This document shows positions 26,017 to 32,745 of a stretch of 64,000 nt of DNA, piece after piece. Where the stretch lies: the NCBI GenBank assembly GCA_964016885.1, contig OZ024740.1:180916001-180980000 (forward strand), written 5' to 3'. Position 1 is the stretch's first letter. Every line of letters begins with the position of its first letter. Under the pieces are notes generated by a model. The model was given only the letters and a program-made list of their open reading frames with translations, had not been told where the DNA came from and made no database searches. The position numbers and the translations under genes were made by a program. This stretch comes from Eledone cirrhosa. Taxonomy: Eukaryota.

Positions 26017-26334
26017 AATGTATGTATAGTATATTTGGCAATATAGCGTATGTTTAACTAAAAACAGTTAGAAGACCATACGCAATCTGTTTTCAGGCAG
26101 TGACTATGTCACTTATTTATTTTCTGCGAAAGAAGGGAGAGAGATTCATAGTTTGTTTCACGCTGGTTGGCGTTCATCAGAACCCCGCACTTCTCAGCTT
26201 CCGCCGAAAATTATAGAAGCTGGATTTTTATAGAATTCCAGTAATAATCAAGAGCTGATTATACAGAGCGATTGCCGGTTCAGCACAAATTAAGAATTAG
26301 GATTGGTGCTCTGAAATAGCAATGTATACATGAA
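26017..26334 (-). mobile_element. Family C ~316-nt non-coding monomer with one hammerhead (retrozyme-like)
   Basis: Its start sequence follows its end sequence in the copies at 19590-19632 and 26640-26686; HHR at 26141-26186. Confidence 0.8.
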
Positions 26335-26337
26335 AAT

Positions 26338-26686
26338 CAGTAAGTTTCATAGTCACTACATAAAAACTGATAGCGTATGGTATTCTAAATGTATTTAATT
26401 AAACATACTGTATATTGCCAAATATACTATACATACATTCATATATACAGCTTCTATAATTTTCGGCGGAAGCAGGGGAGTGCGTGGATCTGATGAACGC
26501 CGACATGCGTGAAACAGACTATCAATCTCTCTCCCTTCTTTCTCCGAAATTAAGTGAGATAGTCTCTACTTTAAAACTGATAGCGTATGGTCTTGTAAAT
26601 GTTTTTAATTAAATATACTGTATATTGCCAAATATATTATACATACATTCATGTATACATCGGTATTTCAAAGCAGCAATCCTAAT
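26338..26686 (+). mobile_element. Family C partial tandem (210-nt period, internally deleted)
   Basis: actgatagcgtatgg at 26366 and 26576; HHR lies between them. Confidence 0.82.
26484..26529 (+). ncRNA. Minimal hammerhead (family C)
   Basis: CTGATGA-acgc-cgacat-gcgt-GAAA-cagactat-C-aatctc; the minus copy has stem I ggggtt/aatctc. Confidence 0.8.
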
Positions 26687-26812
26687 CTCTCTCTCTCTCT
26701 CTCTCTCTCTCTCTCTCTCTCTCTCTCTCTCTCTCTCTCTCTCTCTCTGTACCCCCCCCCTCTTTCTCTCTCTCTCTCTCTCTCTCTCTCTAAATATATA
26801 TATATATATATA

Positions 26813-27087
26813 TAACGAAAGAAATGTGGTAGGGAACCAGGTGGACCATAAGCACCAAAGTACTCAATACCTAGGGTAGTAGAGTGGGTAATAGGAACGA
26901 GTAGGGCCCCGACGGCTGAGCTCAAGCCGTTTCGACGGCTAATTCTGGACTTAATATATATATATATCGGGATCCCTGCCGTCGGTGTCCTGACTCTTTT
27001 CCTATTACCCACTCTACTACCCTAAGTATCGAGTACTCTGGTGCGTTATGGTCCAACTCGTTCCTTACCACAGTTTCTTCACTACAT
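26813..27087. repeat. Inverted repeat around (TA)n; same family at 48518-48660 and 59520-59610
   Basis: ttcctattacccactctactaccctaagtat motif on both strands. Confidence 0.88.
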
Positions 27088-27250
27088 AATTATATATATA
27101 TCCGTTATTGGGTTTCTCAATAAACACTTGCATAAGCAGGATTGAGCACTTGACGTAATATAAATTTACCGTTATATCATCACGCAAGTATGTGTTCGAT
27201 GGAGTTTGACATAGTAATGCATACGTTGAAATTTCACGACTTTATATTTC

Positions 27251-27288
27251 CTAACAGAAGAACCACCCTTCGGGTGGTGTTCTGCTAG
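27251..27288. other. GC-rich hairpin ending in CTAG (Helitron 3'-terminus-like)
   Basis: ctaacagaagaACCACCC-ttc-GGGTGGTgttctgCTAG. Confidence 0.4.
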
Positions 27289-29954: not shown

Positions 29955-30497
29955 TATATATATACATACTACTGTACGTCTGTATACATATATGTATGTA
30001 GGTGTACATACTTATATTTAAGTAACAGCCGTACAAAGAGTGGGAAATGAAATTTCGTTTCATTTTTTCCGTTTATCGTTTTCGGTGCACCCGGCCGATT
30101 AACCCACTCGATATGCAAATTAGGCTACTCAGCCGTTAATATGCATAAGGTAAGTATATACGTTCAACAATCTGGCAGGAAGGTATACGTTGCTGACGAT
30201 AGCTAATAAGCTTGAAACTAGTACAACGTTCCATTGTCAGTGTTGAATAAACGAGCAACGATGGTTGCTGGACACGGCTTAATACAGCATGTTTGTTTAC
30301 AAACACACCGGGCATTATAATAAATGTTCGGTGAATCCATACGTAGATATATATATATATGTGCATGTATATATATATATATATACATACTACTGTACGT
30401 CTGTATACATATATGTATGTACGTGTACATACTTATATTTAAGTAACAGCCGTACTAAGTTTGGGAAATGAAATTTCGTTTCATTTTTTCCGTTTAC
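29955..30497 (+). mobile_element. 421-nt-period non-coding unit with terminal redundancy and one hammerhead (retrozyme-like)
   Basis: catactactgtacgtc at 29965 and 30386; ~110-bp direct repeat. Confidence 0.85.
30187..30229 (+). ncRNA. Apparently intact minimal hammerhead with U.U at the base of stem II
   Basis: acgttg-CTGACGA-t-agct-aata-agct-t-GAAA-ctagt-A-caacgt; cut after 30223. Confidence 0.88.
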
Positions 30498-30518
30498 ATA
30501 TATATATATATATATATA

Positions 30519-30883
30519 TACGATATTAAACAAATGGAAACTATATTTATAAAACAATATTTATTTCGTTATATATATTTCTGGGATATCATATTAAAAA
30601 TATGGTATGCCTTCCTCAGACAAAATACAATACATAAGCTGTTTTATAAATAATTTTGACAAAATTATAAAACAGCTTATGTATTGTATTTTGTCTGAGG
30701 AAGGCATACCATATGTTTAATATGATATCCCAGAAATATATATAACGAAATAAATATGGTTTTATAAATATAGTTTCCATTTGTTTAATATCGTAAACCT
30801 ACTCCAGAAACTGTTGAGTGCTTTTATATCAGTTATAAAATATTTACTCGTTGTAACCCAACAATTTTAAATAAAACTTTTGC
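30519..30883. repeat. Palindromic family-A-related pLTR (arms 30519-30649 and 30665-30795) plus tail to (TA)n
   Basis: rc identity; similar to 2545-2745. Confidence 0.92.
30688..30751 (+). ncRNA. Hammerhead with A.A at the base of stem II; mirror at 30563-30626 (-)
   Basis: attttgt-CTGAGGA-a-ggcatacc../..gatatccc-a-GAAA-tatatat-A-acgaaat. Confidence 0.8.
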
Positions 30884-31291
30884 ATATATATATATATATA
30901 TATATATATATATATAGTATATATATATACCACGATAAATTAACGGGGTCAGAGACTCTCGCTATTCCCTGTAAATTGTGTGCTCAAAGGAAAAGGAATC
31001 GCGAGCTCTTTAAAATACACAACATATTGTGTATATAGTGTATATATATATATATATATATATATATATATATATATATATAAGTGAGCAGGTAAAGATA
31101 TTTTTCTCAGGTCGTTTGCTGTTTCCATGTATGATATTATTAGGCTCTGAGTCTTACTTTTATTAACTATCTCATTGAACCAAACTCAGTAAAAACAGGA
31201 GACCATGCATGTATGTATCTATACGCGTATCGATATATATATATATATATAAATTCTCATTTAGTATATATATATATATATATATATATAC

Positions 31292-31992
31292 ATCAACTTT
31301 GCCCTTAAACATTTAGTGCTTGATAAATATATCAACAGTCAAAAATTGGTGAATGCCTTTATATATTCAACATCATAACCTAACTTTTCTCGCTTTCATT
31401 CTCTTTCCCTAAATATATTTCACCTCTTACATTATATCCTATCGTATTCTCTTCACTTTTAACATAACTTCCAATTTATTAATTTATTAATTTAACCAAT
31501 ACATATATGTATATATTTAATATTTTCATGTTTATACCATCTTTATATTTTAACCACCACAACTATTTTCAATAATCATATTATGTTCACTTCTCTCCAC
31601 ACACTTTTTATTTATTTTTATTTATTTTTTCTCATCTTCATAACTTATTAATTGTTTTTTATTTATTATTTTTTTCATTTTCTTTTCCCTTTTTTATTTC
31701 TTTATCTTTTTTCTTCTTTCTTTTTCTCTGTATCTTTTTCTTTTTCTTTTTTTCATTTTTCTTTCTTTACTGTTGATGTTGTAATTTGAATTTCCCTAGT
31801 ATATTACAAACGCCGTGTATAATTTTAAAACAGTTTTTCTGATGATTTGGTTAAGCATGCATTGTATTTAAAATTGAGTGACAAAACTTCAAGTGAGTAG
31901 CAAATTTCAGATGACTTAATCAATGAAACAATTTTTAATACTGTGAATAAACCCTTTTTGTACTGTTGACCATGTTATTCTTCACTCTTTCA
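31292..31992 (+). mobile_element. PLE 3' region / family E pLTR; the first 68 bp have an inverted partner at 32904-32970
   Basis: Tail homologous to 63323-63490 (rc); ends in (TA)n. Confidence 0.75.
31830..31944 (+). ncRNA. Hammerhead with long stem II and U.U base (family E), slightly decayed
   Basis: acagttttt-CTGATGA-t-ttggttaag..cttaatcaa-t-GAAA-caattttt-aatactgt. Confidence 0.75.
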
Positions 31993-32005
31993 ATATATAT
32001 ATATA

Positions 32006-32745
32006 TATATACAAGGATTGGAATTACAGTATTCCGCAGTTCACAGTAATAATAATATTAGCTCAAAGAAGAAAAGAGAATTTTCATCTGAGCTCAAATA
32101 CAAATATAGTACACAGAGAGAAGTGTGTTACACAGTGAGATGTGTGTAAATAATTATTACATATGAGTTTAACTGTTACTGTATAGAGAACAATACCTAC
32201 ATTTTAGCAATTAAATAGAAAAAAGCTAAGTCAGAATCAAATCTCTGAAGTAGAGTTTTAAATTACCAACCGTATAAGCTTGCTGATACGAATCTACTTC
32301 GTTTCGCCACAGAAATATGCAGTTTAACAGCCCACGGGTTCCTCAGTCAGCAAGTATGTATGTTGTTCACGACACATCTAGCCTAATGGATAGAGAGAAA
32401 GCAAATATACACGCTGCCCAGAGTAGGGCGAAATCACGTGTTATATGCATCATATAACGGCTCTCATGATTTGGCGAAAATGCTAGAGAGGCAGCCCAAC
32501 CATTCGCATTTATTAGCTCAACAATTTGGAGTTCGTTAAATATACAAGGATCGGAATTATAGTAGTCCGCAGTTCACAGTAATGATAACATTAGCTCAAA
32601 GAACAGAGAATGTTCATCTGAGCTCAGATACAAATATATTACACAGAGATAAGTGTGCTACACAGTGAGATGTGTGTAAAGAATTATTACATGTGAGTTT
32701 AACTGTTTCTCTCTAGAGAACAATACCTACGTGTTAGCAATAAAT
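32006..32745 (-). mobile_element. 533-nt-period non-coding unit with ~200-bp terminal redundancy and one hammerhead, (TA)n on both sides
   Basis: acaaggat at 32011 and 32544; HHR lies in the unique part. Confidence 0.86.
32279..32354 (-). ncRNA. Type I hammerhead with 8-bp stem I and a full hairpin stem III; stem II irregular
   Basis: rc: cttgctga-CTGAGGA-...-GAAA-cgaa-gtaga-ttcgt-A-tcagcaag. Confidence 0.85.

Follow-up and report, generated by a model that had tools for sequence, protein, structure and literature searches.

How did three unrelated, non-coding units, each associated with a hammerhead ribozyme (HHR), come to lie near one another in TA-rich DNA of Eledone cirrhosa? The question arises from a 64,000-nt stretch of contig OZ024740.1 (hereafter the window, to which coordinates refer unless another locus is named), an AT-rich and microsatellite-dense region with 118 tandem-repeat rows in an assembly of 3.0 Gb. 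A first-pass annotation had described three units there, here called U1, U2 and U3, as one retrozyme-like system. The explanation that we favour, with a probability of roughly 85%, is that U1-U3 are three dispersed families of non-coding HHR elements at TA microsatellites, which are likely to owe their mobility to Penelope-like elements (PLEs), whose reverse transcriptase (RT) and GIY-YIG endonuclease would act on them in trans.

Units, hammerheads and copy number

Positions within a unit are given as q, the coordinate in the HHR-sense monomer, with q1 at 29955 for U2, 32538 for U3 and 26334 for U1. The units and their HHRs lie in the window as follows:

26017..26334, minus strand: U1 monomer (316 nt), the left arm of a two-armed insertion (26017-26686); its 3' end adjoins (AT)n at 25954-26016
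26332..26686, plus strand: inverted arm of U1, composed of two segments (unit positions 211-316; 110-316 and then a 39-nt tail), which stops at (TC)n
26136..26192, minus strand: U1 type I HHR, decayed; CUGAUGA core from 26180, AUG triplet where the family has GUC
29955..30496, plus strand: U2 copy of 1.29 units, a 421-nt monomer (29955-30375) and a 121-nt repeat (96.7% identical)
30187..30229, plus strand: U2 type I HHR, intact; core at 30193, predicted cut between 30223 and 30224
32006..32746, minus strand: U3 copy of 1.39 units, a 533-nt monomer (32006-32538) and a further 207 nt (89.6%)
32279..32354, minus strand: U3 type I HHR, intact; core at 32346, predicted cut between 32287 and 32286

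The three units were found at the places first assigned to them, with monomers of 316 nt (U1), 421 nt (U2) and 533 nt (U3), a GC content of 0.36-0.38, and sense strands that are minus for U1 and U3 and plus for U2. They proved mutually unrelated, as blastn between them gave no match even at E<=1, and they hold no protein open reading frame (ORF), the longest ATG ORFs within the units being of at most 76 aa, all in U2 and partly simple repeats. The microsatellite setting was also borne out, with (TA)n flanking the units. Further pieces in the window were identified for U1 (19254-19633 and 25772-25831) and U2 (19057-19140, 25109-25143, 25469-25590 and 25683-25739) and none for U3, in agreement with the extra fragments reported for two of the units. 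Two U2 3' ends oppose each other across (TA)49 and have a variant in common (25533-25739), suggesting a fold-back duplication at a TA palindrome.

Other parts of the first description had to be narrowed. Head-to-tail continuity, claimed for each unit, holds for U2 and U3, whereas 26017-26334 is a single plain U1 monomer with no terminal redundancy, and the U1 head-to-tail junction (between 26647 and 26648) sits in the adjacent inverted (right) arm. Similarly, a single HHR per unit is seen as an intact type I motif in U2 and U3, whereas that of the U1 window copy is decayed, with helix III broken as well as the triplet lost. A second decayed U1 HHR occupies 26490-26527 in the inverted arm, and the window copies of U1-U3 carry one HHR per strand. 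The idea that the three units form one system is not supported either, since several families are stacked in these TA tracts and U1-U3 are three among them.

The U2 HHR has a 6-bp stem I, CUGACGA, a stem II with a U-U mismatch at its base and a helix III formed by the palindrome ACUAGU, and the U3 HHR has an 8-bp stem I, CUGAGGA and a 4-bp helix III. Both were detected by a relaxed scan, whereas a stricter one, which required the basal positions of stem II to pair, missed them. Rfam at gathering thresholds gave 0 matches in the window, a result that is uninformative for these HHR variants. Thirty copies of each family were selected for their similarity over the whole unit, and in these the catalytic core was intact in 24/30 for U3, 28/30 for U2 and 22/30 for U1. 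Stem I showed compensatory pairs (UA in 17 and CG in 12 copies at U3 pair 8; CG in 19 and UA in 8 at U1 pair 2), a covariation that represents few independent events because the copies are related. Circular folds were more stable than shuffles, with z from -2.5 to -8.1 (the three window monomers and three other natural copies; 40 shuffles each). Self-cleavage of the unit transcripts is predicted from sequence.

A genome search with each unit showed that U1-U3 are all multi-copy and dispersed, and not single-copy local duplications: matches fell on many contigs with unrelated flanks (first-look candidates U3 1108, U2 2603 and U1 2997; 40 scored and 30 retrieved for each). Exact HHR patterns matched genome-wide at least 10,046 times for U2, 123 times for U3 and 206 times for U1, these counts being lower bounds. 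Since the reversed control patterns gave 0 matches for each unit, the patterns are not due to chance. U2 was also present in contigs from three of four public sequencing runs, from two organisms, in which loose ends enter (AT)n at 30076; no RNA run was among the matches listed in this U2 search, which is evidence neither way. As to features of long terminal repeat (LTR) elements, ARAGORN gave no tRNA gene in the window, and no search aimed at a primer-binding site or polypurine tract was made.

Insertion footprints and the RNA template

The anatomy of insertion was studied in 120 HHR-anchored copies, 40 loci per family, taken from the listed pattern matches; anchoring on the HHR leaves less bias towards full-length copies. 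The U2 sample was the first 40 clusters, and the U3 and U1 samples followed list order with most already-sampled places skipped, one U3 locus (L210) being chosen for its pair. When copy ends were mapped on unit coordinates, the check proposed by the first-pass annotation, 5' ends were variable and 3' ends clustered at two fixed sites per family, one or other of which terminated 104/120 copies (U2 34/40, U3 35/40, U1 35/40). These sites are q57-66 (18 copies) and q114-122 (16) in U2, q435-442 (24) and q529-533 (11) in U3, and q310-316 (23) and q34-41 (12) in U1, with spacings of 56, 92 and 39 nt, respectively. The window copy of U2 terminates at the second fixed site of its family (q122), ahead of (TA)n, and that of U3 has its fixed 3' end at 32006 adjoining (TA)n and a truncated 5' end adjoining (AT)n. 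Over the whole sample, (TA)n adjoined the 3' end in 84/120 copies, whereas the proportion was 29/69 at plain 5' ends and 9% at random positions.

An inverted, head-to-head arm was present at the 5' end in 51/120 copies, and its outer end was often again a fixed site. The two arms overlap by 60-433 nt in unit coordinates. Mean identity was 0.961 from arm to arm versus 0.913 to other loci for U3, 0.966 versus 0.940 for U2 and 0.939 versus 0.921 for U1; arm-to-arm identity topped the best other locus in only 20/76 cases. Head-to-tail chains longer than one unit were found in 52/120 copies, and chains crossing at least two cut sites in 15/120 (U2 8/40, U1 6/40, and U3 1/40, which is weak). Each unit is a closed loop, in that reading upstream leads back to its own 3' end. 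The two-site tail, the inverted 5' copy, the partial tandems and the AT-rich target together make up the insertion signature of PLEs.

These footprints also bear on the RNA template. Among 5' ends lying in an upstream unit, 0/38 fell within 5 nt of the HHR cut, and 128/129 U2 segments crossed the cut site without an indel. A linear RNA starting at the cut, which should have produced a pile-up of 5' ends there, was rejected on the first of these counts. Because 5' ends avoid the cut and segments cross it unscarred, the template was read through the cut site, and would therefore be either a ligated circle or an uncut multimer. The DNA footprints fit both alike and do not decide between them, and we consider circular monomers and uncut multimeric transcripts about equally probable. 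The earlier statement that the units were copied from circular or multimeric RNA stands as an either/or, and not as a demonstration of the circle. As a separate observation, 4 of the 12 U2 chains that enter an upstream unit (L147, L152, L155 and L158) break off at q234-237, where HHR stem I has its 5' edge, and not at the cut site.

The mechanism that we propose would begin with transcription of a tandem copy. The HHRs would cut the multimer, and the monomer would possibly be ligated into a circle; for U1 and U2, cleavage is proposed to take place as dimers because helix III is short and palindromic. A PLE protein would then nick both strands of a TA tract, and cDNA would start inside the RNA at either fixed site, probably helped by a few bases of TA match. 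Two such cDNAs would extend toward each other and be joined at their truncated ends, and some arrays may expand locally afterwards.

Long arrays and shared variants are informative here. We found U2 arrays of 7, 10 and at least 23 units. One young two-armed insertion (L253) consists of 2.4 and 7.5 units back to back, with ends at q66 and q122, and its nine full units differ at 0-3 of 348 sites. At another locus (L050), four rare variants occur in all three units, both arms included, which favours one template. Several observations weigh against the proposed mechanism, however. The L253 variants are nested and not star-like, with a private base in 6/9 units and another in 8/9, and therefore do not fit a single monomer circle copied nine times. 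Only 2 of the 13 U2 loci with at least three segments carry rare variants common to all units, and U1 and U3 mostly have 1-1.5 units, two cut sites being reached in only 6/40 and 1/40. At two loci (L155 and L251) every second unit is identical, giving ABAB arrays, and a third (L259, G000:C28:45630000-45639900) holds at least 23 diverged U2 units in a satellite-like array that runs off both ends of the retrieved stretch. U1-U3 showed no homology to the 3' ends of six PLE families sampled from 40 GIY-YIG loci. In the literature, 8/9 tested Xenopus retrozyme dimers failed to cleave (bioRxiv 10.64898/2026.07.22.740005), and for an anole PLE HHR cleavage proved unnecessary in vitro and priming did not depend on homology (PMC11167929). 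The ABAB arrays and the diverged L259 indicate that long arrays also form locally, and L259 may be a source from which multimeric transcripts arise. The view that long arrays prove rolling-circle copying was rejected, since the ABAB and nested patterns point to local amplification or multimeric templates.

The strongest competing explanation retains PLE mobilisation and dispenses with circular RNA. Read-through transcripts of tandem master arrays would be the templates, the HHR would be weak or unused, and the units would be non-autonomous derivatives of the pseudo-long terminal repeats (pLTRs) of PLEs. It overlaps with the explanation given at the outset, from which it differs in the RNA step alone, and we rate its chances at somewhat under even. 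Arrays able to supply multimers do exist (L259, with at least 23 units), and the nested variants in L253 are consistent with such templates; moreover, HHR cleavage is dispensable for PLE priming in vitro (PMC11167929) and minimal PLE HHRs are poor cleavers (PMC4209133). However, an unused HHR is at odds with a core that is retained and a stem I that covaries across subfamilies, and the four rare variants in every unit and both arms of L050 also speak against this explanation, as does the absence of same-strand HHR pairs at unit spacing among the 100 matches listed for each of U3 and U1.

Candidate PLE partners and related systems

Autonomous PLE families were sought in the same genome. A GIY-YIG search gave 10,596 first-look candidates, of which 150 were scored and 40 loci sampled, 20 of these picked mainly for long ORFs; 19 of the sampled loci were grouped into six PLE families (A-F). 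Candidate partner ORFs span 844-1096 codons, among them those of family A at L111 (938 codons) and family D at L113 (1096 codons), and Pfam identified RVT_1 in 5/5 and GIY-YIG in 4/5 of the ORFs submitted. Family-A proteins are about 97% identical to each other, and families A-E have a cysteine motif ahead of the nuclease, which we take to be Neptune-like in the light of the PLE literature. The sampled RT and GIY-YIG families have 3' ends at (TA)n. Two fragments of them lie in the window:

6278..7764: two-armed family C fragment (RT and GIY-YIG), with (TA)n at each outer end and 33 nt between its two 3' ends
53484-54761: family E fragment (RT and GIY-YIG; ORF end and 3' region), about 94% identical to the locus L130

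Being two-armed and two-ended at (TA)n, the family C fragment shows the same footprint as U1-U3. No partner enzyme was identified for U1-U3, since they have no 3' homology with the sampled families. The first-pass proposal of PLE-mobilised mini-elements agrees with units that are non-autonomous, dispersed, targeted to (TA)n, HHR-bearing and head-to-tail with PLE-type footprints. As for the HHRs of the PLEs themselves, families A and C have mere HHR-like remnants in terminal repeats (3' regions of L111 and L122), and in family B a minimal HHR can be recognised about 400 nt past the ORF.

We also considered whether the units are ordinary pLTRs of unsampled autonomous PLE families, seen as truncated partial tandems. 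PLEs occur most commonly as truncated and inverted pieces of pLTR with an HHR (PMC4209133), the sample took in only 40 of 150 scored GIY-YIG loci out of 10,596 candidates, and the exact HHR patterns cover only some subfamilies. Nevertheless, we hold this to be improbable. A unit was joined directly to a PLE ORF in 0 of 210 loci, as judged against the six sampled families, so that no copy runs into a sampled RT ORF; 52/120 chains pass their own 3' end and go on head-to-tail; and the 69 plain 5' flanks share no sequence except for one duplicated pair and simple repeats. PLE ORF matches lay near a unit in 17/210 loci, two of which (L143 and L188), inspected whole, are separate insertions. A U2 copy considered as a family A pLTR (L124) was rejected, as family A homology stops about 1240 nt past the ORF and U2 lies beyond it. 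We consider it least probable that the units are satellite-like repeats which spread at the DNA level, by unequal crossover or by fold-back at TA palindromes, and retain the HHR as a relic, since fixed 3' versus variable 5' ends, strand polarity, arms ending at different fixed sites and unrelated flanks on many contigs all speak against this, even though DNA-level amplification does occur, as in the ABAB arrays and a duplicated whole insertion (L155, L251, L257).

We class U1-U3 as new families of the known metazoan non-LTR retrozymes, with cleavage predicted from sequence and circular RNA putative. Novelty as a system is not supported, as the described class already fits (PMC7229834; bioRxiv 10.64898/2026.07.22.740005). 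Like its members, U1-U3 have non-coding monomers of a few hundred nt, with GC below 45% and one type I HHR each, and they form head-to-tail dimers to multimers beside many monomers, with thousands of copies, structured folds and co-occurring PLEs. U3 (533-546 nt) exceeds the 170-400 nt given in PMC7229834 and falls inside the 51-972 bp of bioRxiv 10.64898/2026.07.22.740005. Circular RNA of non-LTR retrozymes was detected by northern blot in coral, mussel and axolotl, whereas U1-U3 are known from DNA, and 21/57 Xenopus retrozyme families matched PLEs, whereas U1-U3 have no pLTR homologue among the six sampled families. In the available text of the same two papers, TA targeting, two fixed start sites, two-armed insertions and cross-family fusions are not described for non-LTR retrozymes. 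PLEs were named as likely retrozyme carriers by Cervera and de la Pena (2020, PMC7229834), and retrozymes were linked to pLTRs by Li, Clavereau and Pollet (2026, bioRxiv 10.64898/2026.07.22.740005).

The likeness to PLEs is close as well. Frangieh et al. (2024, PMC11167929) showed that a PLE starts at two internal sites and extends both strands. As in PLEs (PMC8557442; PMC11167929), the type I HHR of U1 and U2 has a short palindromic helix III, and U1-U3 show 5' truncation, partial tandems, an inverted 5' copy, AT-rich or (TA)n targets and an optional tail between two internal RT start sites. Unlike PLEs, U1-U3 have no ORF and form self-closing units; their tails measure 39 nt (U1), 56 nt (U2) and 92 nt (U3), compared with the 30-40 bp described for PLEs in these two sources; and their ends show short TA matches to the target, whereas the anole PLE protein primes without homology (PMC11167929). 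Chlamys PLEs such as MRC1 (Craig et al. 2021, PMC8557442) offer a further parallel in being non-autonomous, pLTR-forming, multicopy head-to-tail and PLE-mobilised. However, MRC1-type elements share 3' sequence with autonomous partners, whereas U1-U3 have no such homology to the sampled families, and their clade is reported to be without canonical HHRs (PMC8557442), whereas U1-U3 carry them. Our literature search found no paper on these families in cephalopods or on retrozyme-PLE chimeras; the families may already be catalogued in Repbase or Dfam, which lay outside the search.

Cross-family fusions and neighbouring repeats

Neighbours from different families lay no more than 120 nt apart in 41 pairs; of these, four are head-to-head, and all four are without a TA run between them. 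One of these lies in the window:

25683..25844: U2-U1 head-to-head fusion, just left of 26017, with a 32-nt junction of scraps from both and no TA run

Here U2, on the minus strand, ends at q122 in TA, and U1, on the plus strand, ends at its fixed site. The other three join family C to U2 with a 2-nt overlap, both outer ends being native and at TA (L149), U2 to U3 (L205), and another HHR family to U3 (L180). One event using two RNAs would explain the four fusions, and so would a second insertion accompanied by loss of the TA in between. Four of four without TA is only suggestive because 42% of plain 5' ends adjoin TA. Same-orientation joins without TA were also seen, namely of a family F 3' end to U2 (3-nt match), a U1-like tail to U2, U6 (a short family described below) to U1, and U2 to U3 (L057:1149-2001; L152; L222; L002), and these are either template switches or nested insertions.

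We tentatively suggest, as a rather unlikely extension, that the PLE protein acts as a dimer onto which retrozyme circles are loaded, each subunit holding its own RNA and priming one nicked TA strand at a fixed internal site, so that different RNAs can be joined head-to-head in a single insertion. If true, the fusions would be direct genomic evidence of PLEs mobilising retrozymes in trans, and the inverted insertions of PLEs would be explained as two-RNA events. So far, the link between animal retrozymes and a PLE enzyme consists of co-occurrence and pLTR similarity. What U1-U3 add to the known class is the set of footprints and the cross-family fusions, and they give base-level predictions for the existing in vitro PLE assay: two RT starts, TA targets, overlapping two-armed products and mixed-template fusions. 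With more than 10,000 exact HHR cores, U2 is well suited to a test for circular RNA. In annotation, TA-rich intervals like this one may be treated as nests of several small PLE-dependent families.

The interval around U1-U3 holds at least two further two-armed families that the first-pass annotation had not listed:

26796..27102: U6, a short two-armed family ending at TA; the relaxed scan shows no type I HHR
30519..30797: U4, a fourth HHR family, two-armed and inverted, with intact type I HHRs at 30695 (plus strand) and 30619 (minus strand)

Further pieces of U4 were identified at 2548-2649, 47796-47897 and 43343-43402, and of U6 at 48500-48654 and 59540-59611; U6 is frequent beside U1-U3 copies in TA tracts. 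A fifth HHR family, U5, occurs at 14330-14535, where its type I HHR lies at 14437, and once more in the opposite orientation at 11992-12180. Another repeat forms an inverted pair (29697-29909 and 31046-31260, 81% identical) that brackets U2 and U4. Finally, 157- and 187-nt tandem repeats at 44040-44778 are made of a common sequence resembling a short interspersed element.

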